A DNA stretch of 64,000 nucleotides from Candidatus Kerfeldbacteria bacterium RIFCSPLOWO2_02_FULL_42_19 (GCA_001818315.1 MHKF01000018.1:64325-128324), one strand, 5' to 3'; shown: positions 3,704 to 64,000, counted from the first letter of the stretch. Made by a program: numbers and translations. Notes: generated by a model from the letters alone, not told the origin.

Positions 3704-4792
3704 ATGTTCTATCCGAAAATCGCTGTTTTTTTTCTTCTTGCTTCGAGCCTTACTTTTGTTGGTTGCAATCTTCAACGTCAAGCTACTCAGCTTGATGGCG
3801 GAGTATTTTTGAGTCTGGACTACGGTGAGACTTGGAACACGCGAAGTTTTGTCCGTTTTGAAACAAAAACTCGGCGTCTGATTTCAATAAACGACGTCAC
3901 TATCCATCGTCTTATATTCGACCCAGTGAACCCCAGTATGGTATACGCGTTGACGAAAGAAGATGGATTGTATGTTACGGAAAATGATGGAAAGGAATGG
4001 CGTAAAACAGGGCTTTCAGCTGGCAACATTACAGCGTTGAGTGTTGATCCGCAAGATACACAACGGCTTTTTGCAGCACGAGGTAAAGAGATTTTGCGAT
4101 CCATTGATCAGGGTACAACTTGGGAAATCGTGTTTACCGATACTCATAATGCCTTACTCACGGATGTTGATATTGACTTTTATGATCTTCAAAACGTGTA
4201 TGCTACGACCGATTCCGGGACTGTACTGAAAAGTCTTGATGGCGGAGTAAATTGGGAAATACTTTATGTGCCTGGGAAAGAAATCCGTGAGCTGATCCTT
4301 GATTCGAATGATAGTCGTATTGTGTACTTAGTGATAAAAAGCCGTGGTTTTCAAAAAAGTATCGATTCTGGCGTAACGTGGCAGGATTTTCGAGAAAAAC
4401 TTGCAGAGTTTTCAGGTGCTACTACGATTCAGCGACTGATAGTTGATCCTCAAAATTCACAACATATTTTGATCGCCTCTACCTTTGGGTTGCTTGAGAG
4501 TTTTGATGCCGGAGCAAGCTGGAAGCCAATTCAAACATTACTTACCGCACCTCTTGCCTTTAGTGCATTTGCTTTAGATCCGCAAGACAGTCAGCGCATG
4601 TATTTTGCGATTAAAAATCTGATGCACAAAACCGAAGATGGAGGGTTGACATGGAAAACGATTGAAAATTTTCCTTCGAAACGTCCTGTTATTTTTCTGA
4701 TTGCGCATCCTATTGAAACGAACGCACTGTACGCCGGGACTCTGAAGGTAGAAAAGAAACGTCGTGGCATTTTCCCGCAGCCCGCCAAATAA
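3704..4792 (+). CDS. BNR/Asp-box repeat lipoprotein (Ycf48-like beta-propeller)
   Basis: Signal peptide with lipobox LTFVGC. Seven S/D-x-D/G-G-x-T/N-W Asp-box repeats (YGETWNT, DGKEWRK, QGTTWEI, GGVNWEI, SGVTWQD, AGASWKP, GGLTWKT). Confidence 0.6.
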   Translation: MFYPKIAVFFLLASSLTFVGCNLQRQATQLDGGVFLSLDYGETWNTRSFVRFETKTRRLISINDVTIHRLIFDPVNPSMVYALTKEDGLYVTENDGKEWRKTGLSAGNITALSVDPQDTQRLFAARGKEILRSIDQGTTWEIVFTDTHNALLTDVDIDFYDLQNVYATTDSGTVLKSLDGGVNWEILYVPGKEIRELILDSNDSRIVYLVIKSRGFQKSIDSGVTWQDFREKLAEFSGATTIQRLIVDPQNSQHILIASTFGLLESFDAGASWKPIQTLLTAPLAFSAFALDPQDSQRMYFAIKNLMHKTEDGGLTWKTIENFPSKRPVIFLIAHPIETNALYAGTLKVEKKRRGIFPQPAK

Positions 4793-48383: not shown

Positions 48384-50081
48384 TTATTCTGTAACACGAT
48401 GATACAGTTCCTCAATTTCTTTGTTTGTTTTCATTTCCGAAACTATTTTTTGCGCTTCGTGTTGATTCCCTTGATCATAAATATCTATCATTCGTTCAAA
48501 ATATTTTCTTAGGAGCGTATAAAATTGAGGGATATTTTTTACCTGTATCATCCAACCGTGTGTTGTTTTTGTGATGAGGCCGCTTTCCATCATTATACGT
48601 AACTCAAGAAGCGCACTGTTGTAATACGAACGAAGTGTTGTTTCCTCGCGTAATCGCAGATATCGTAGATTCCCAGCCAGCAACATAATCGGCAATTGTG
48701 TCCATATCTCACGTGATATTTCCCCTTGTTCGTAACGAAAATGCGCGCACATCATTCCACACCACGTAGCTTTTACTTCATCCATGTCTGCCACTAATGA
48801 TGGAGTTAAGGCGCTGATGGTTGTATTGTCCACAAAAGCACCGTGTCCAACTTCATGACCGGTAATGAAATGCGCGATAATCTCTGCTGTCTGCATGCAA
48901 AAATATTTTTCTGTTGCAACAGGACCAAAGACTTTTCGAAAGAGTTCTTGTGTTTCTTTTCTTCGCGCTTCCATCCCGTTGTAATCGAGGAATATTTTTG
49001 TTCCATATTTTCTTCGCACATCACTTCTTTCAGGAACAATTTTTCCAACACCTAAAAATTCGACATCCTCTCCCGCGAAGGTGATGGGAATACACACTTG
49101 AAGTTGAATTTTTTTCATTGCCTCTCGTGAAGCTGCCCAAGTTTTTTTCTTATGGTAGTGTCGCGCAAAATGCTTTTCGAGCATGTGTTGTGTCTGTTTT
49201 GCTGTTGCATTCACCGCTGCTTGTTCCGCGTCTTCGATGACGATGCGAAGACTCGGTGCTACACGAATGCCAGTAGGATCAATATAATTTTTTTCCATCC
49301 CATGAATGAACTGAATTTTTCCAGGCGTTCTTAACCACGCGATATCAACGTCTCTCCAGAGTTTTTCCATACGTGCGAGATGTGGATTCGCGTAACTGCG
49401 TTGTAGCTTTCGAAAATATCGGTTAAAGGCATGGATATGTGGTTCTTTTTGATATACTTTGAGGTTCTGTATGAGTTTTAGAAGTGACGCTTCGATGCTT
49501 TGGTAGTGTGATGTGTATGCCTTTTGTAAAGGCACGAGTGTGTATTTGTCGCGTATTTTCTTTATCACACTGTAAGCATGATCAAGTCGTTGCTTTTTGA
49601 GCCACTCAGCGCCTACGCCAGGATCTTCTTCTAAATTTGCGAGCATTCGACCTATGGATGATTCCTTCATGAATCGTCTCCATGCAATGAAAATTTCATC
49701 GATTGTTTCACACCATGGCAAACTTTCTCTAATGAGTATTACTTCACTTGCGCTCAGTCCTAAAAGATCAGGTTGTTGCAAACGCCAACGAATGATTTCA
49801 TGTTTGAGTTTATTTTTTTGTGCCGCTGCTTTCAGTACGGGCGTGTATTCTCCTTTGATTTCATATATGCTACTGAAATCATAGTTTAAAACAGCATCCG
49901 CTACACGCTCTTGTTGTTCTTCACCTAAAACATTGAGTATTGATTTTGCTTCCGGGTGCTCGCTCAAAATAGTATTCACTGTTGATTCAAGTTGTTTAAA
50001 AAAAATGCACGTTGGTGCTGATTGAAGTGCTTTAAAATGATTGGGAAAGTGTGTTGTGAATTTTTCGATGTTGAATTTCAT
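48384..50081 (-). CDS. HExxH zinc metallopeptidase (M3/oligoendopeptidase F-like)
   Basis: HEVGH at ~aa 420 with a Glu ~26 aa downstream (ADMDEVKAT) in the position of the M3 third ligand; family assignment tentative. Confidence 0.45.
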   Translation of the reverse strand: MKFNIEKFTTHFPNHFKALQSAPTCIFFKQLESTVNTILSEHPEAKSILNVLGEEQQERVADAVLNYDFSSIYEIKGEYTPVLKAAAQKNKLKHEIIRWRLQQPDLLGLSASEVILIRESLPWCETIDEIFIAWRRFMKESSIGRMLANLEEDPGVGAEWLKKQRLDHAYSVIKKIRDKYTLVPLQKAYTSHYQSIEASLLKLIQNLKVYQKEPHIHAFNRYFRKLQRSYANPHLARMEKLWRDVDIAWLRTPGKIQFIHGMEKNYIDPTGIRVAPSLRIVIEDAEQAAVNATAKQTQHMLEKHFARHYHKKKTWAASREAMKKIQLQVCIPITFAGEDVEFLGVGKIVPERSDVRRKYGTKIFLDYNGMEARRKETQELFRKVFGPVATEKYFCMQTAEIIAHFITGHEVGHGAFVDNTTISALTPSLVADMDEVKATWCGMMCAHFRYEQGEISREIWTQLPIMLLAGNLRYLRLREETTLRSYYNSALLELRIMMESGLITKTTHGWMIQVKNIPQFYTLLRKYFERMIDIYDQGNQHEAQKIVSEMKTNKEIEELYHRVTE

Positions 50082-56858: not shown

Positions 56859-57404
56859 TTAAATTTTACGAATTTGCAATGAATCAAGTTCCACAGGGGT
56901 TTCGCGACCGAAAATAGATATGAGTACTTTCACTTTCCCGCGCCCTTCATCAACTTCGGCAATTTTTCCTTCCATAGTTTTGAAGGGGCCATCTGTAATT
57001 CTCACAGAATCACCGACACCGACTTCGATTTTATACTTCGGTTCTTCAATGCCCATTCGGCGTTGTAATTCCTTTACTTCATCGATTGAAATTGGCGTTG
57101 GAGTTGTGCCAGAACCTACAAAGCCAGTAACATTTGGCGTGTTCCGAACAACGTACCAAGAATTATCATCCACGATCATTTCGACCAGGACATATCCCGG
57201 AAAAAGTTTTTCCGTCACGACCTTTCTCTTTCCGTTTTTAATCTTAATGCGTTTTTCGGTCGGAATAAGAATATTAAAAATTTTATCTTCCATATCCATG
57301 GATTCGGTGCGTTGACGAAGGTTGTGCGCGACATTTTCTTCATACCCGGAATAGGTATGGAGCACATACCATCGTTTTCCTTGTTTTGATAATTGTTTTG
57401 GCAT
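56859..57404 (-). CDS. nusG: Transcription termination/antitermination factor NusG
   Basis: NGN domain (WYVLHTYSGYE), KOW (GD.V.I.DGPFK...G). Confidence 0.9.
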   Translation of the reverse strand: MPKQLSKQGKRWYVLHTYSGYEENVAHNLRQRTESMDMEDKIFNILIPTEKRIKIKNGKRKVVTEKLFPGYVLVEMIVDDNSWYVVRNTPNVTGFVGSGTTPTPISIDEVKELQRRMGIEEPKYKIEVGVGDSVRITDGPFKTMEGKIAEVDEGRGKVKVLISIFGRETPVELDSLQIRKI

Positions 57405-57413
57405 AGAACCGAT

Positions 57414-57611
57414 TTAGAGTATTTTTTTGAGAAGTGTTGCAAAGATATAATCCATTGTACCGAGGAAGACCGCAACGATTGCACTGGCTCCAATCACAAT
57501 AAGTGATTGTCGAATTGTCTCCTGACGCGAGGGCCAATCGACTTTGCGTAATTCACTGTAGGAATCTTTAAGGTATTGGATAAGATGGAGTGTCCTTTTG
57601 TCGCTTTCCAT
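57414..57611 (-). CDS. secE: Preprotein translocase subunit SecE
   Basis: Single C-terminal TM (LIVIGASAIVAVFLGTMDYIF) preceded by ELRKVDWPSRQE; likely start at internal ATG 57611. Confidence 0.8.
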   Translation of the reverse strand: MESDKRTLHLIQYLKDSYSELRKVDWPSRQETIRQSLIVIGASAIVAVFLGTMDYIFATLLKKIL

Positions 57612-58059
57612 TATTTCTATCTTAAAAAGACCCTTGTTTCGGGTCAAATCAATCATTATTTATACTCTATCGTATTTTACTCATCCGCGCAAGTGCAAAA
57701 ATTTTTCTTCACACAGTCTAGACTTCATGCGTTGTATGAAGGGACTGTTGCCGAATACACTTTTGCCTGCAAAAATTACAGTGGACTTTTTACATGTTTC
57801 AATGCCGGATTGCTCACATGCGTATAGCGTTGCGTTGTCTTGATGTTGTTGTGTCCGAGCAACTCCTGGATATAACGAATATCTACCCCGTTTTCGAGGA
57901 GATGAGTCGCAAAGCTGTGCCGGAGTGAATGGAACGATGCTTGTTTTCGAATACCCGCACGCTTCAGCGCCTGATAAAATACTGCCTGAGCCGTACGAGA
58001 CGAAAGAGATCCACCGCGTTGACTTCTAAAGAGAAGATCGCGTGAGGTTGCAAAAGATT

Positions 58060-59080
58060 AGACCTGTTGCGTATTAAATATGGTATCATAAAGACAGAGT
58101 AGAAATTAAAACAACATAAAATATGAATCTTTCTAGAATTTTTCAGAATCCTCGGCAGTTAAAAGCATTAACCGGAGCATCGAAAGAAGAGTTCGATGAT
58201 CTGCTTCCAGTATTTGAGTCTTGCCTCAAGAGATTAAAGAAAGATCACAGTACTGCACAGAAAAGAAGGTTTGGTGGCGGTCCCAAAGGCAAACTTCCTA
58301 CGGTTGAACTCAAATTATTTTTCATCCTTATGTATGTCAAAGTATATCCCACCTTTGATGTTTTAGGTTTCCTCGTAGATTTTGATCGCTCAAGAGCCTG
58401 CAGGAACACTCATTTCCTCTTCACGGCACTGGAAAAATCCTTAGGGAGAAAGATTGTCTTACCCGAACGAAAAATTCGCTCAGTAGAGGCACTCTTTCAA
58501 AAGTTTCCTGATCTTAAGGATGTATTCGTTGATGGGCTGGAACGACCAGTCCAGCGACCAAAAAAGCAAAAACAACAACGAAAACTCTATTCGGGTAAAA
58601 AGAAAACCCACACCAAGAAGAGTGTGGTGGTGGTCGATGAAAAGAGACGCATCTTGTTGCTCACAAAAACCAAGTCAGGCAGGAGGCATGACAAGCGTTT
58701 GGCTGACAAACAAGCCTTGTTTGAATGGATTCCGGAATCGATTACCGTCTGGGTGGATACGGGTTTTCAAGGGATACGCAAACAACATACCAATACGATG
58801 ATCCCCAAGAAAGCAACCAAGGGACACCCCTTAACCTACCAAGAAAAACAAGAGAACAAAACAATTTCTGGTTTACGTGTGGTGGTAGAGCATGCTATTG
58901 GAGGTATAAGACGGTTCAGAAGCATTGCTGATATCTATCGGAATAGAAAAGCTTTTATGGAAGACAGATTTCTCAGAGTCGCCGCTGGACTCTGGAACTT
59001 ACATCTGAATCATACAACATAATCTCACAGGGAATGTGGAAATATATTGTTTGATTCTGATATTAATACGCAACAGGTCT
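58060..59080 (+). mobile_element. IS element (IS4/IS5-superfamily-like, single DDE transposase), ~1.02 kb, 18-bp perfect terminal inverted repeats, 3-bp ATT target duplication
   Basis: IRL AGACCTGTTGCGTATTAA (58060-58077) and IRR TTAATACGCAACAGGTCT (59063-59080) are exact reverse complements; flanked by ATT on both sides. Confidence 0.85.
58123..59022 (+). CDS. DDE transposase of the IS element
   Basis: YSGKKKTHTKKSVVVVDE...VDTGFQG...VEHAIGGIRRFRSIADIYRN pattern typical of IS5-family/Harbinger-like DDE transposases. Confidence 0.75.
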   Translation: MNLSRIFQNPRQLKALTGASKEEFDDLLPVFESCLKRLKKDHSTAQKRRFGGGPKGKLPTVELKLFFILMYVKVYPTFDVLGFLVDFDRSRACRNTHFLFTALEKSLGRKIVLPERKIRSVEALFQKFPDLKDVFVDGLERPVQRPKKQKQQRKLYSGKKKTHTKKSVVVVDEKRRILLLTKTKSGRRHDKRLADKQALFEWIPESITVWVDTGFQGIRKQHTNTMIPKKATKGHPLTYQEKQENKTISGLRVVVEHAIGGIRRFRSIADIYRNRKAFMEDRFLRVAAGLWNLHLNHTT

Positions 59081-59642
59081 ATTGAGAAGTGATGAGAGTA
59101 CGAAGATCTTGTATAAAATTTTTAGAGATGACTGTGAGTCGATCTTTGTTTCCTTTTCCATTACGAATGAATAGGAGAAGATTGTTCAGATCAATATCGC
59201 TCATACGAAGGCGGACTACCTCGCTTACGCGCAAACCCGAACCATATGTGAGCGCCAGTAATACTCGGTGTTTCAGATTGGCAGTACAAGCAATCATACG
59301 TCGAATTTCATCGCGTGTGAGAATAACGGGTAGTTTCCATGCACGTTTAGGATAATGAATATGAGTAAGCGGCGGGAGGTGATACAAATTGATTCGCGCG
59401 AAATTGATGGCGTGAATGTAAAGAGCGATGGTTTGACTCGAACGTCCTTTCTGGAGTTGATCTTGGATAAAGAATTTCATTTCATCCTCACCGATTTTGT
59501 TTATGCGCATTCGAAAGAATGTGTAGAGATTCCACAATGCACGGCTATAAGCGCTATAGGTTCGATAACTGTAATTTCGAACTTGTATTTCGCGTTTGAG
59601 TATTTCTAATAAACTTGGCATAATAAAAATGGGTGAATCCAC

Positions 59643-59736
59643 AAAGGTAGCAATCGAGAGGATTACCCATCAATACAGATATCATACCCCTTTCGCCCAC
59701 ATTCCGCAATTTTATGCGTATAAGCACTAGTTAGGC
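59643..59736 (+). other. Putative attI region with GTTAGGC core site (59730-59736)
   Basis: Canonical integron core 7-mer GTTAGGC lies 31 nt upstream of the first cassette ORF and ~90 nt from the divergent recombinase start. Its reverse complement GCCTAAC is the first 7-mer of the attC-like site after cassette 1. Confidence 0.6.
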
Positions 59737-59767
59737 GAAATGCGACTTAACAATTAAGCGTTTAAGT

Positions 59768-60196
59768 ATGAAAAATTTTTCATTTTCCGTAGACAAAGAT
59801 GTGGTGTCTGCCAAAGAAGCTATTAAGCTCTATCTCGCGCTGAAATGGGGCAATGAATCAAAGTACGATGAAAACAAAATGAAACAAGCTTTAGAAAGTA
59901 CAACGATGGTAATATCAGCTCGAGATAGAGCTGGAAAACTCGTCGGTTTGACGAGAGTATTGAGCGATGGCGTGATTCATACATCAGTGGCAGATATTGC
60001 CGTTCATCCTGAATATCAAGGTCAAGGTATTGGTACGCAGATGATGGAGTTAGTGAAAAAACAGTATGGCCACACCGGCATATTTGTCGATGCCTTTAAG
60101 GAAAATGAAAAATTTTTCATGGAGTGTGGATACAAAAAGAGAGATATGATAGTGCTTTCGAAGCTTTTTGTTAAAGAACCGTCGCACATCGCCTAA
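59768..60196 (+). CDS. Cassette 1: GNAT family N-acetyltransferase
   Basis: Acetyl-CoA binding motif QGQGIGTQMM; stop codon TAA lies inside the GCCTAAC inverse core. Confidence 0.8.
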   Translation: MKNFSFSVDKDVVSAKEAIKLYLALKWGNESKYDENKMKQALESTTMVISARDRAGKLVGLTRVLSDGVIHTSVADIAVHPEYQGQGIGTQMMELVKKQYGHTGIFVDAFKENEKFFMECGYKKRDMIVLSKLFVKEPSHIA

Positions 60197-60322
60197 CACG
60201 CAGTATGCGGCTACAGTTTGCTCCGTTTCACTCCGAAAACTTCCGCCCATATTCACTGGTTGTACCGTACTTCGTGCGATATTATACAGCCAGTGAACAT
60301 CGCATACTGCGGAACGTTGTGC
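60191..60322 (+). other. attC-like site 1 (132 bp imperfect palindrome, GCCTAAC ... GTTGTGC)
   Basis: Outer IR cgcagtatgcg/cgcatactgcg, inner IR tattcactggttgta/tacagccagtgaaca; ~85% identical to site 5. Confidence 0.7.
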
Positions 60323-60351
60323 GAAATAATTCGCCTTAGTATACTGCCAAC

Positions 60352-60744
60352 ATGAACACTAACCGTAAAAATATATCGTCAGGTTCTCCAATGGAAAAGC
60401 CAATCGGCTTCTCGCGTGCCGTTAAAATCGGAAACATGATTTCTGTATCAGGCACAGCTGCCATTGCGCCAGACGGAAGCACTGCCCATCCAGATAGCGT
60501 TTATGAACAGACAAAATACTGTATCGAAATCATGAAAAAAGCTATCGAAGAAGCAGGCGGCACGCTCGAAAATGTCATACGCACGCGGATCATGCTCACC
60601 GACATTTCAAAATGGGAAGAAGCTGCAAAAGCTCACGGTGAATACTTCACAGATATTCGTCCCGCGTGCACCTTTGTCGAAGTCAGTGGCTTCATTAAAA
60701 AAGATTGGCTAGTAGAAACCGAAGCCGATTGTCTTCTTGATTGA
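60352..60744 (+). CDS. Cassette 2: RidA/YjgF/L-PSP family protein
   Basis: ~130 aa chorismate-mutase-like fold, ..VSGTAAIAPDG.... and C-terminal ..VEVSGFI.. typical of RidA. Confidence 0.7.
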   Translation: MNTNRKNISSGSPMEKPIGFSRAVKIGNMISVSGTAAIAPDGSTAHPDSVYEQTKYCIEIMKKAIEEAGGTLENVIRTRIMLTDISKWEEAAKAHGEYFTDIRPACTFVEVSGFIKKDWLVETEADCLLD

Positions 60745-60761
60745 AGACGGCGAATTACATC

Positions 60762-60896
60762 ACACAACAGCGTATAGCCAGTTCGGCACTTTATTATGGC
60801 TGGCTTTCAGCACAGCCAAAAGTGCCTCTCCCATATTTGCTGGTGATTGCACATATTATATCACCAGCAAACATCGGCTATACGCGAACGTTGTAC
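60762..60896 (+). other. attC-like site 2 (ACACAAC ... GTTGTAC)
   Basis: IRs cgtatagcc/ggctatacg and tttgctggtgat/atcaccagcaaa; inverse core matches the GTTGTGC boundary at 6/7. Confidence 0.65.
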
Positions 60897-60939
60897 GCTG
60901 TGCCGCGCTTTTGATAAACTCAATGTGAATCGTTAAAGT

Positions 60940-61332
60940 ATGGATATGAGCAGCTCAAAACTTTCACTTAAGGTGTTGCCGATGAAGGTCGGTATCTGTC
61001 GTCTGGAAAAGGAAGCGAGGATTCCTGATTGGGCAATAGTGGGTGGATTCTTTTCTGTTACGCGCACCGATGATGAATTGTCGGTAGTGTGTATGGAGGA
61101 AAATATACCGGAAGATGTAAAGTGTGAAAAAGGATGGCGCGTGTTTAAGGTGGAGGGAATACTTGATTTCTCATTGACCGGAATCCTCGCTTCCATAGCC
61201 AATCCATTAGCTCAAGCTAAAATCAGTATTTTTGCTGTTTCCACATTTGATACCGACTATATTCTCGTGAAAGAAGATACTCTTGAAGAAGCCGTGAAAG
61301 TTTTGAGCATCGAATTCAGTGTGTTGAAGTAA
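60940..61332 (+). CDS. Cassette 3: ACT-domain-like small protein
   Basis: 130 aa; beta-alpha-beta-beta-alpha-beta style pattern with two ~60-aa halves (..VGICRLEKEA.. / ..ISIFAVSTFDTDYILVKE..) resembling ACT regulatory domains; low certainty. Confidence 0.45.
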   Translation: MDMSSSKLSLKVLPMKVGICRLEKEARIPDWAIVGGFFSVTRTDDELSVVCMEENIPEDVKCEKGWRVFKVEGILDFSLTGILASIANPLAQAKISIFAVSTFDTDYILVKEDTLEEAVKVLSIEFSVLK

Positions 61333-61354
61333 AAAAAGAGAAGCGCGGCACAGC

Positions 61355-61532
61355 GTACAACAGCGCGCATCCGAGAGATTTTGCTACAATAATGCTGTAT
61401 CCTTTGAAAAAAGCAGAGCCAAGATACAAGCTGGTCGCTTTTATCCAAATGGCGTTTTCGCGCTTTGCTTCGGCTCCGCCGATATTTTAGCAAAGCGCTC
61501 AACGCCACTTCGGATGCGCGCAAACGTTATAC
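61355..61532 (+). other. attC-like site 3 (GTACAAC ... GTTATAC), 178 bp
   Basis: Inverse core is the exact reverse complement of the cassette-3 5' boundary GTTGTAC; IRs gcgcgcatccgag/cttcggatgcgcgc and gcgctttgc/gcaaagcgc. Confidence 0.65.
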
Positions 61533-61646
61533 GCAATTCAAAAAATATTTTTTTAACGAAGAATACTGAATGATAGGCTTTCAAAAGGAAATAAATTTGA
61601 TTTTTAAAACACAATAATTATAAACTTTATCTAATATTTAATAGAC

Positions 61647-62297
61647 ATGCAGATTAAAAAGCTTTTAAGACAATTTGATGAATTACATCATATCCATGGA
61701 GATAAAAATTTGGACTCGATTTATGGTGCAGGACAAATTCATAATCCTAAAGTGTGCTTAGTATTTATGAACCCCACTGGTAGAAATGTAGCGTCAGATA
61801 AAAAATGGCGTGGCTTAAAAGCGCCTTGGATAGGCACAAAAAATGTATGGAAAATGTTTTTTCAACTTGGTTTTTTCGAAGAAAGTTTTTTCAACGAAAT
61901 TAATGCAAAAAAACCAAGCGATTGGGATTATGAATTTGCAGGCAAAGTTTATACAAAAGTGAGTGATAATTCTATATACATAACTAATTTATCAAAGGCA
62001 ACACAGATAGATGCAAGACCTCTTAGAGATGATGTTTTTAGAGAGTATCTAGGTTTATTTGAAGAAGAAATAAATATTCTTAATCCACAAATTATCATAA
62101 CTTTTGGAAATCAAGTAAGCTCAATTTTACTGGGTAAAAATATCAAGGTTTCAGATTATAGAAAGAAGCATGAAAATATTAAAGTTAATGGAAATGCTTT
62201 TAAGGTTTTTCCTGTATACTACCCAGTTGGACAAGGCATGAGAAATATAAAAAAAGCAAAGGAAGATATTGCTTGGATTATCAAAAATCAAATTTAA
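61647..62297 (+). CDS. Cassette 4: uracil-DNA glycosylase superfamily-like protein (AT-rich cassette)
   Basis: ..VCLVFMNPTG.. in the position of the UDG GEAPG motif, ..IYITNLSKA.. and ..IIITFGNQVS.. resemble UDG family 4/5 motifs B. Markedly lower GC than neighbours. Confidence 0.45.
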   Translation: MQIKKLLRQFDELHHIHGDKNLDSIYGAGQIHNPKVCLVFMNPTGRNVASDKKWRGLKAPWIGTKNVWKMFFQLGFFEESFFNEINAKKPSDWDYEFAGKVYTKVSDNSIYITNLSKATQIDARPLRDDVFREYLGLFEEEINILNPQIIITFGNQVSSILLGKNIKVSDYRKKHENIKVNGNAFKVFPVYYPVGQGMRNIKKAKEDIAWIIKNQI

Positions 62298-62406
62298 AAT
62301 TAACGAAGAAAGCCTATTATAATGAGTAAGAACGAAAAATATTTTTTGAACTCACTTCGCTACGCTTCGTGCCACGCTGCGCTCTCCTCCCTGTGGTCGT
62401 CGGGGC

Positions 62407-62506
62407 GTATAACAAGGGATATACGGTTCAGCCCTCGGCTCGGGCTTCACCCAAATTTTTCTTCCGCTACGCTACATAAAAACTTCGTATATCCCTGACG
62501 TTATAT
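62407..62506 (+). other. attC-like site 4 (GTATAAC ... GTTATAT), ~100 bp
   Basis: Inverse core is exact reverse complement of cassette-4 boundary GTTATAC; IR gggatatacg/cgtatatccc. Confidence 0.65.
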
Positions 62507-62533
62507 GAAATACATTTTTAGAGCTATTTGAAA

Positions 62534-63301
62534 ATGCAAAAAGTTACCAAAGCAATAATCACATTAATACTTTCATACATTCTACTCAGCTTGTATGCTT
62601 TTGGCGTTTTTTTACAACAGCCACTCATAAAAGGAGAATCACTTACTATCCAAGCAACACTTGAGCCTTTTGCGTATGTATTGCTTATGGTCATTGGTAA
62701 CTTTTTGATTTTCAAAGCAGTATATTCTCAAAAAAGATCAAAGAACCGTTTCTTCGATGAGAGAAAACTTTTAGCACCGACAATAATTTTTCTTTTATTG
62801 TTGAGTTTCGGTGCAGGAATCCATACAGCAGGGCAGCTCATCGAAGAAACTTTCGTAAATACAAATGCCAACATTCAACATTTTACAGATAATTTTACAT
62901 CACAAGTAGCATACTTTTTTGAGGAATATCCTGCTCATTTTTTAATTGCTTTGCCTTATCTTATACTTTTGTATTTTGTGGCAAAACTAGAATTGAACAG
63001 ACCACCTATTCATCTTAAAAATATCGAAAAAGGCATTATTGTAATGTCAGCAATACTTTATGGAATCATTTTTGCAGTATTAAATGCGGAAGGGCAGGTA
63101 ACAATATTCGCAATTATTATCGCTGGATATTTGATTTATTCAATTTACAGATCAAAACAACAAATAAAGCGGGAACTGATAGATATGCCTTTTTCGACTT
63201 ACTTTGTAATCGGAAATGCGGTGATGATTTTATTAAATGTATTATTTGGAATAATGTATGGGTGGTCTGTTCAGCCAACTGAATTAGGTTTTGGCTCATA
63301 A
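62534..63301 (+). CDS. Cassette 5: polytopic membrane protein of unknown function
   Basis: ~6-7 predicted TM helices; track start TTG 62528, ATG at 62534. Confidence 0.5.
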   Translation: MQKVTKAIITLILSYILLSLYAFGVFLQQPLIKGESLTIQATLEPFAYVLLMVIGNFLIFKAVYSQKRSKNRFFDERKLLAPTIIFLLLLSFGAGIHTAGQLIEETFVNTNANIQHFTDNFTSQVAYFFEEYPAHFLIALPYLILLYFVAKLELNRPPIHLKNIEKGIIVMSAILYGIIFAVLNAEGQVTIFAIIIAGYLIYSIYRSKQQIKRELIDMPFSTYFVIGNAVMILLNVLFGIMYGWSVQPTELGFGS

Positions 63302-63337
63302 ACGCAACTAAAAAATAATAGCTCTAAAAATTACATC

Positions 63338-63459
63338 ATATAACACTGCGTATGCGGCTACGGCTTGCTACGGAAGCCTTCGCCCATATTCACTGGCAGT
63401 AACGCGCTTCGCGCGATATTATACTGCCAGTGAATATCGCATACTGCGGAACGTTAGAT
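63338..63459 (+). other. attC-like site 5 (ATATAAC ... GTTAGAT), 122 bp
   Basis: Exact reverse-complement relationship to cassette-5 boundary GTTATAT; near-identical to site 1 (shared gtatgcggctac...cccatattcactgg...gcgatattatac.gccagtgaa.atcgcatactgcggaacgtt). Confidence 0.7.
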
Positions 63460-63475
63460 GTAATTTGTCCTGCCT

Positions 63476-63910
63476 ATGTTCCAAAAAATAATATCACCAA
63501 TAATATATGCACTTTTTATCATTCCGGGATTAATCGCTGGAATGGCGAATGTGATCTTTTTTGATACGCGTGATGATGATTTAGAATTAATCGTTGGTAA
63601 CCTACTAGCTGGTATGATAATTTTGATCTTGATAATAACATCGATAGCTGTAGTGATGACCATTGGAAACATAGTGATCTATAAAATAGAAAGGCTCAAA
63701 AAACCCACAAAAAAAGATCACATTCGCCAAAGTCTAATATTTTATCTAGTTCTTGTTCTTGGAATATTGGTTACGATTACTGCCGAAAATACCAACGGCT
63801 TAGGATTTACCTATCTCTACATAATAATGATGGCCGCAACTATTGCAATCGTAACCAACATAATCTATCTCGTTTACAAAAATTATCACGGCAGGACAAA
63901 CTACATCTAA
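63476..63910 (+). CDS. Cassette 6: small 4-TM membrane protein of unknown function
   Basis: 144 aa, four hydrophobic helices; stop codon inside ATCTAAC inverse core. Confidence 0.5.
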   Translation: MFQKIISPIIYALFIIPGLIAGMANVIFFDTRDDDLELIVGNLLAGMIILILIITSIAVVMTIGNIVIYKIERLKKPTKKDHIRQSLIFYLVLVLGILVTITAENTNGLGFTYLYIIMMAATIAIVTNIIYLVYKNYHGRTNYI

Positions 63911-64000
63911 CAGCGCCTATCGGGGGTTGTTGCCTACTTTCAGGCTTGGTACTATGGAAAAAGCCTCTGACTGTTTTCAGAGCTTTTCTCTGAAAACAAA
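63905..64000 (+). other. attC-like site 6, partial (starts ATCTAAC; runs off window)
   Basis: ATCTAAC is the exact reverse complement of the cassette-6 boundary GTTAGAT; downstream IRs tcagag/ctctga visible before window end. Confidence 0.55.

Follow-up and report, generated by a model that had tools for sequence, protein, structure and literature searches.

A 1,021-bp insertion sequence (IS) interrupts, between codons 180 and 181, a minus-strand gene for a tyrosine recombinase in the stretch of DNA analysed here (64,000 nucleotides, hereafter the window). An attI-like site and an array of cassettes bounded by attC-like sites adjoin the recombinase gene, which is oriented divergently to them (Table 1). 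When both arms of the IS were re-inspected, the perfect 18-bp terminal inverted repeats that a preliminary description of this DNA had ascribed to a 1,021-bp element proved exact (18/18 bases), and the 3-bp ATT direct repeat reported with them is present at both flanks. The single 299-aa DDE transposase ORF named in that description is the sole ORF of the element and appears to be intact. The arm sequence AGACCTGTTGCGTATTAA has just two matches in the 64-kb window even when three mismatches are allowed, compared to 0.04 expected from shuffles, and the GC content of the IS (40.9%) is close to that of the window (41.3%).

Table 1. Features at the interrupted recombinase gene and the adjoining cassette array (positions in the window).
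Feature	Position	Strand	Remarks
Recombinase codons 181-273 and stop	57776..58059	-	H223-x-x-R226, H249, nucleophile Y258
Target-site duplication ATT, left copy	58057..58059	.	
Insertion sequence, DDE_Tnp_4 / IS5-like	58060..59080	+	1,021 bp; single copy at the site
Left terminal inverted repeat AGACCTGTTGCGTATTAA	58060..58077	+	18 bp
Transposase ORF	58123..59022	+	299 aa; triad D137/D212/E256; apparently intact
Right terminal inverted repeat TTAATACGCAACAGGTCT	59063..59080	+	exact reverse complement of the left arm
Target-site duplication ATT, right copy	59081..59083	.	
Recombinase codons 1-180	59082..59621	-	N-terminal SAM-like domain, R131, K156/K159 hairpin
attI-like crossover GTTAGGC	59730..59736	+	109 bp upstream of the recombinase ATG
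Cassette array	60191..64000	+	attC-like sites; the last runs off the window
attC-like sites 1-3	60191-60322, 60762-60896, 61355-61532	+	
attC-like sites 4-6	62407-62506, 63338-63459, 63905 onwards	+	sixth leaves the window

A cassette array with predicted attI and attC sites

Seven attC-like sites of 100-184 nt follow one another in succession, six of them starting in the window. Between the first six bases of each cassette and the R'' box of the same cassette, 47 of 49 positions are complementary, an R'/R'' complementarity that is the signature of G|TT crossovers, and the R'' box of cassette 1 (GCCTAAC) can pair with the TTAGGC of the attI-like site. The bottom strands of the sites fold into long hairpins (z-scores -2.7 to -10). 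Classical attC sites have a layout of spacer and extrahelical bases, whereas the sites in the window have another layout, with a bulge of 2-3 nt adjoining the R box. Among the cassette products are a GNAT acetyltransferase, a RidA/L-PSP protein, an ACT_7 protein, a UDG-superfamily protein and two unknown membrane-like proteins, with a methyltransferase and others further along; the array goes on for at least three more cassettes in related contigs (positions 1-1621 of L008 and 10436-13105 of L110). By its position and its attI/attC layout the locus is, as far as its sequence goes, an integron-type array.

As background, our ad hoc attC detector hit the 64-kb window once away from the array and gave no hits in nine unrelated loci; 13 weaker hits, each with one stem mismatch, came from elsewhere in 80 recombinase loci. 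The lone hit in the window (49783-49890, minus strand) also has one stem mismatch, lies within a 565-aa ORF far from the array and is most likely a false positive. A search of positions 57400-64000 against Rfam found nothing, promoter and terminator scans did not rise above shuffle level, and no tRNA gene was found in the window.

The insertion parts the catalytic residues of the recombinase

We rebuilt the host gene under three junction models, of which only deletion of the element together with one ATT leaves the frame open. The minus-strand frame then extends over 273 aa from the ATG at 59621 and reads through the join as ...LRTLITSQ|...RYTHV; at the DNA level the rebuilt uninterrupted junction reads ...AAAAGATTGAGAAG... 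and the rebuilt empty site has the sequence ...GGTTGCAAAAGATTGAGAAGTGATG.... A TA duplication with 17-bp repeats was rejected, as it results in an in-frame stop codon, and so were 19-bp repeats without a duplication, which result in a frameshift. The original ORF can thus be reconstructed, as had been claimed, and its product has all the catalytic residues and a two-domain fold. In the interrupted gene, by comparison, translation ends at a TAG (59081-59079) whose first base is the last of the duplicated target and whose other two are the first of the IS, and the fragment with codons 181-273 is now cut off from its promoter and from the N-terminal part. Since the IS splits R131 and K156/K159 from H223, R226, H249 and Y258, the locus, to judge from its sequence, can no longer make an active recombinase, and we regard the inactivation, which the preliminary description had also put forward, as secure.

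The insertion had moreover been described as clean, and this is borne out by the 3-bp ATT junction that restores the ORF, both gene halves being without damage beyond the insertion and the target duplication intact, but not by the three extra residues (9 nt) that adjoin the junction at a distance of 1-4 residues in the rebuilt protein. The protein is collinear with 119 homologues, all of which (119/119) lack these residues, and the surplus is its only indel (window ~58046-58057, codons 181-184, the SFAT loop). It is possibly the footprint of an earlier visit of an IS or a lineage-specific loop, so that the allele may have been atypical even before the insertion, or the event less than perfectly simple. 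We consider it improbable that the 9 nt are the trace of a previous insertion that was later excised, or of a transposition-linked rearrangement, in a gene that was perhaps already impaired. Such a history would account for a loop exactly three residues shorter in every homologue and for the position of the sole indel so close to the IS; however, the 3-bp duplication fits the A-N-T rule of the IS family (see below), and neither a longer direct repeat nor a remnant of an IS end is evident at the flanks. Moreover, the site opens a loop (residues 180-199) after helix 167-179, predicted with pLDDT >80, where length variation is plausible, and the closest homologue is 55-56% identical, which makes a lineage-specific indel unsurprising.

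Read as a simple transposition, the event at the Kerfeldbacteria locus resembles that in the Xanthomonas chromosomal integron, in which, in the summary given in PMC9229058, intI was inactivated by insertion sequences: an IS lies in the integrase gene that heads an array, and the working integrase is gone. The Kerfeldbacteria locus differs from Xanthomonas intI in its CPR host, in a gene without the IntI-specific domain and in an undescribed IS of the DDE_Tnp_4 kind. IS disruption of an integrase gene is an already known, ordinary event; the IS is a new member of a known IS kind. With its perfect ends, intact duplication, undamaged gene halves and fixation over many samples, the insertion provides a datable marker.

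Clusters of attC sites lacking an integron integrase are termed CALINs (Cury et al. 2016, PMC4889954), and standard tools would most likely call the window locus a CALIN, as in practice its array now lacks a functional integrase. It differs from a CALIN in that both recombinase halves have been kept undamaged, so that the sequence itself tells how the CALIN state arose.

A divergent IS5-like element with an A-N-T target

The transposase matches Pfam DDE_Tnp_4 (PF13359) with 99 bits (cutoff 24.8) over the whole profile (positions 1-158 of 158), and HTH_Tnp_4 gives a weak match. Residues D137, D212 and E256, which we named as the triad from their motif context (DG.E, D.GF and VEH), are invariant in 120 homologues, in line with the earlier assignment to the DDE transposases. 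The NCBIfam IS5 equivalog models were not passed (75.5 versus a cutoff of 140 for NF033581, 32 versus 110 for NF033580), and judged from these profile matches the IS is a divergent branch of the IS5-like / DDE_Tnp_4 group.

IS5-family DDE_Tnp_4 transposases (ISL2/IS1031-type groups) are relatives of the eukaryotic PIF/Harbinger transposases (PMC12730594). The window IS shares with the ISL2/IS1031-type elements a length of ~1 kb, one ORF with HTH_Tnp_4 and DDE_Tnp_4 domains and a DDE triad, short terminal inverted repeats and a 3-bp duplication, while it differs from the IS5 family in falling under the NCBI equivalog cutoffs and in its A-N-T target. IS1031 and Harbinger elements target TNA/TWA.

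Homologues of 299 aa number in the thousands in metagenomes, mostly on contigs of about the size of the IS, a pattern typical of multi-copy elements; among 185,579 representative genomes no close copy was found, the best match reaching 47% aa identity. PGAP labels the relatives just 'transposase family protein' and comparison with plasmid proteins returned generic 'transposase' names only, from which no IS subgroup emerged. The nearest relative transposase (P0122, 84% aa identity) comes from Hainich groundwater contigs that NCBI assigns to a Verrucomicrobiota MAG. The nearest relative IS (L105/L106) aligns end to end with bases 1 to 1021 of the window IS at 75% nt identity, and the similarity stops exactly at bases 1 and 1021, which confirms the IS boundaries independently of the host-gene argument.

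The terminus AGAC(C/T)TGT is common to the closest relatives (L105, L106, L108 and L109), and the IS copies in L001 and L004 start AGAGTTGT. The flanks read ATT/ATT in the window and in L001 and AAT/AAT in L108, L109 and L004; the A-N-T duplication is perfect in 5/7 related copies, and in L105 and L106, contigs that barely exceed the IS in size, the flanks differ by one base. To judge from these flanks, the IS family duplicates a 3-bp A-N-T target, which accounts for the seeming 19th base pair as well: a repeat finder had given arms of 19 nt (T58059 and A59081 being complementary), and these two bases are part of the duplicated target, outside the IS. No attC-like sites were found near the related IS copies, which suggests that the IS family has no special link to integrons.

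A separate observation concerns L001, a contig of a Gemmatimonadota MAG, in which AGACCTGTCGCG... stands directly after the related IS and its ATT duplication and ...TTAATACGCGATAAC follows ~120 nt further on. This stretch (positions 3929-4075), with ends that resemble those of the window IS, looks like a MITE-like remnant.

The insertion recurs across sample assemblies

At least 12 sample assemblies, made by different assemblers (MEGAHIT k141, ANAN16 scaffolds, Logan), include contigs with both junctions at 99.8-100% DNA identity, and some of these contigs reach 88-138 kb. The truncated 180-aa recombinase product is encoded in 16 contigs and the exact transposase in 23, and in every place shown the order is secE, IS, N-terminal part of the recombinase and GNAT cassette; the exact transposase was not found in any other context in the 23 contigs. 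A 1-kb repeat elsewhere in the genome would normally break contigs, and the long contigs thus point to a single copy. The constancy of the secE/recombinase context wherever the exact transposase is shown likewise agrees with the single event that had been proposed from the window. No intact allele of the recombinase was found among 5.8 billion proteins, the best full-length match being ~55% identical.

The window belongs to a metagenome-assembled genome, which protein names assign to a Candidatus Kerfeldbacteria of the Rifle aquifer. Repeats may cause contigs to be joined wrongly in such a genome, and so the junctions might be an assembly chimera, a question that the preliminary description had itself raised, or a rare polymorphism with the gene intact in most cells. 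We hold this to be exceedingly improbable, given that the junctions are identical in all these assemblies irrespective of the assembler and in contigs of up to 138 kb, that the search of 5.8 billion proteins held no intact allele, and that the IS, having no other context, offers no second copy that could cause a misjoin. The contigs thus show an insertion that is not a chimera and that, to judge from their sequences, is single-copy and fixed in the sampled population. As to its having been called recent, the perfect repeats, the intact duplication and the lack of further lesions speak for this, but the insertion is fixed and the protein search held no intact allele.

One short contig (L023, ERZ28564302) has a 44-bp deletion (window 57622-57665) at the 5' end of secE and in the spacer towards the recombinase stop, and its secE is called as 65 aa versus 80 aa. 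A difference between L110 and L111 was set aside as one of gene calling only, their DNA being 99.985% identical.

A domain-less tyrosine recombinase in the position of an integron integrase

The rebuilt recombinase matches Pfam Phage_integrase (PF00589) with 159 bits and has an N-terminal SAM-like domain, and R131, K156/K159, H223, R226, H249 and Y258 do not vary among the 15 homologues aligned with it. AlphaFold gave a confident, complete two-domain model of the rebuilt protein (mean pLDDT 84.6), in which the junction falls at the end of helix 167-179, where a loop starts. With Foldseek, XerA and VchIntIA rank equal as the best structural matches, the alignments spanning 312-317 columns for the 273-aa query.

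The integron-integrase models were not reached (TIGR02249, 197 versus a cutoff of 265; PRK15417, 131 versus 435), and the match to TIGR02249 falls into two stretches, the best of which pairs residues 5-187 with profile positions 2-187 of 315. In the alignment with VchIntIA/IntI4 (PDB 2a3v), query residues 192-196 correspond to residues 196-240 of the chain, indicating that the IntI-specific domain of ~40 residues is absent. This domain around patch III is given as the defining criterion in a passage of PMC9668308 that cites Messier & Roy 2001. IntegronFinder uses it as a criterion as well. The best NCBIfam match of the rebuilt protein is XerA_Arch (NF040815), with 211 bits against a cutoff of 220, and the XerC and XerD equivalog cutoffs were not reached either (189 versus 335 and 184 versus 330); PGAP names some of the ~270-aa homologues 'site-specific tyrosine recombinase/integron integrase'. 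The label 'recombinase' in the preliminary description therefore stands for a tyrosine recombinase with its catalytic residues, but one from which the IntI-specific domain is absent. Predicted from domain content and model score, the protein is not a canonical IntI, although its gene occupies the position of an integron integrase.

Relative to the two best structural matches, the rebuilt protein resembles VchIntIA (PDB 2a3v) in fold, in catalytic residues and at 30% identity, and the genomic layout is alike in the divergent gene, the attI-like GTTAGGC and G|TT as the crossover of the attC sites; what is missing is the extra domain. To XerA (PDB 5hxy/4a8e) it is similar in its ~270 aa, in having no extra domain and in giving the best sequence and structure scores, whereas it differs from Xer in remaining under the NF040815 cutoff and in being consistently tied to cassette arrays. 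This tie is seen at other loci: intact ~270-aa homologues divergently adjoin attC-like arrays in L012, L014, L015 and L025-L028, that is, in 7/7 loci with upstream DNA, and these homologues had been picked by size of contig or by rank, not by context. When metagenomes were scanned with the alignment of the recombinase, most matches were to distant recombinases (33-48% identity), and only the top four were of use.

We consider it quite improbable that the gene encodes a housekeeping Xer, acting as a chromosome dimer resolvase, that merely sits beside an array serviced by another enzyme. The best NCBIfam match is indeed to XerA_Arch, the XerC and XerD scores nearly equal the IntI score, the IntI-specific domain is absent and the flanking genes are core housekeeping genes; but the attC-like arrays and the same divergent layout accompany the homologues at all seven loci while the housekeeping neighbours vary, and a fixed knockout is not what one would expect of a sole dimer resolvase. 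From its position and from the homologous loci we infer that this gene supplied the array with its recombinase, a role that would follow from co-location.

Cassette order differs alongside the interrupted gene

In contig L010 of one sample assembly (ERZ27254845), cassettes 1-3 accompany the IS allele, and a different cassette stands past attC3. The contig departs from the window exactly after ...AAACGTTA, in the R' box of attC3 (GTTA|GGC versus GTTA|TAC). A second contig of this sample, L115, opens with 104 nt of unrelated sequence, which end exactly at GTTATAC and are not attC in appearance; the UDG cassette and those after it follow at 99.6% identity. Set against window positions 61526-61532, the breakpoints of L010 (1-195) and L115 (1-104) fall precisely on the G|TT of attC3, and several other contigs end at attI or within the array. 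Thus, cassette order differs among genomes with the IS-disrupted gene, the IS being linked to the variant cassette in L010 by short-read assembly over 2.4 kb, and the earlier statement that the array is probably static is not supported, in view of a contig that has the IS allele and another cassette order from this G|TT onwards.

Arrays without an integrase (CALINs) can be mobilised in trans (bioRxiv 10.1101/2025.06.18.660453), and variant orders alongside the same IS allele suggest either a trans-acting recombinase or exchange between strains. Alternatively, the array might have been frozen since the insertion, in which case the variants would predate the insertion or be artefacts. The window encodes no second tyrosine recombinase in its 64 kb, and most contigs have the same cassette order at 99.98-100% identity, as a frozen array would; nonetheless we view this as unlikely, if not to be dismissed, because L010 and L115 have, in one sample, alternative neighbours exactly at the attC3 G|TT, L010 with the IS allele, and because of the contigs that end at attI or within the array.

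The reading we prefer, with a probability of roughly 85%, is that one IS copy lies in an ATT of an integron-positioned recombinase gene that is inactivated and fixed in this state, beside an array that is not demonstrably frozen. A single copy of the 1,021-bp IS, with its DDE_Tnp_4 / IS5-PIF-Harbinger-like transposase, would have transposed into A-T-T at codons 180/181 of the gene for the 273-aa tyrosine recombinase on the chromosome of a Candidatus Kerfeldbacteria (CPR) from the Rifle aquifer, duplicating this trinucleotide. The gene, divergent beside the attI-like site and the attC-bounded cassettes, holds the position of an integron integrase, and the cassette-order variants with the IS allele would be due to an enzyme supplied in trans or to strain exchange. 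Cassette order would then still be variable in a population in which the recombinase gene is broken, as judged from linkage by short-read assembly.

Two of the attC-like sites of the window, attC1 (60191-60322) and attC5 (63338-63459), are close paralogues with long common stretches and an inner ATTCACTGG...CCAGTGAA hairpin. Their likeness suggests duplication of an attC or a common cassette source, and it could explain some of the assembly breaks.

A possible family of integron integrases without the IntI-specific domain

The more novel point, a by-product of the IS analysis, concerns the recombinase itself. We put forward, at somewhat less than even odds, that the destroyed gene belonged to a widespread ~270-aa family in CPR/Patescibacteria whose members are integron integrases without the IntI-specific domain and whose attC-like sites, of a different bulge layout, recombine at G|TT. 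If so, the family would be active although it lacks a domain that is held necessary and is used to define and detect integrons, standard pipelines would score such loci as CALINs or miss them, and the cassette-order variants tied to the IS-disrupted allele would point to an enzyme that services the arrays in trans. Confirmation would make integrons wider in enzyme type and in taxonomy than the detection tools assume, and a CPR cassette array headed by a recombinase without the integron-integrase-defining domain would be of more interest than the IS event. In soil metagenomes, most 'integron-type' recombinases are without recognisable attC partners (PMC13323075, 2026). Our literature search, incomplete in its coverage, found no description of domain-less integrases in CPR/Patescibacteria/Parcubacteria.

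Immediately downstream of the recombinase gene, and sharing its strand, is the secE-nusG-rplK-rplA operon (window 57414-57656 and downstream, minus strand); homologues of the recombinase gene in other genomes adjoin other core operons (rpoB/C, dnaG-rpoD or rplS). The differing core-operon neighbours suggest that the platforms are chromosomal, but located at different sites in each genome. Finally, in four contigs (L031, L041, L058 and L029) attC-like sites lie downstream of a recombinase homologue (34-45% identity) and on the same strand, a layout that may represent an inverted platform.
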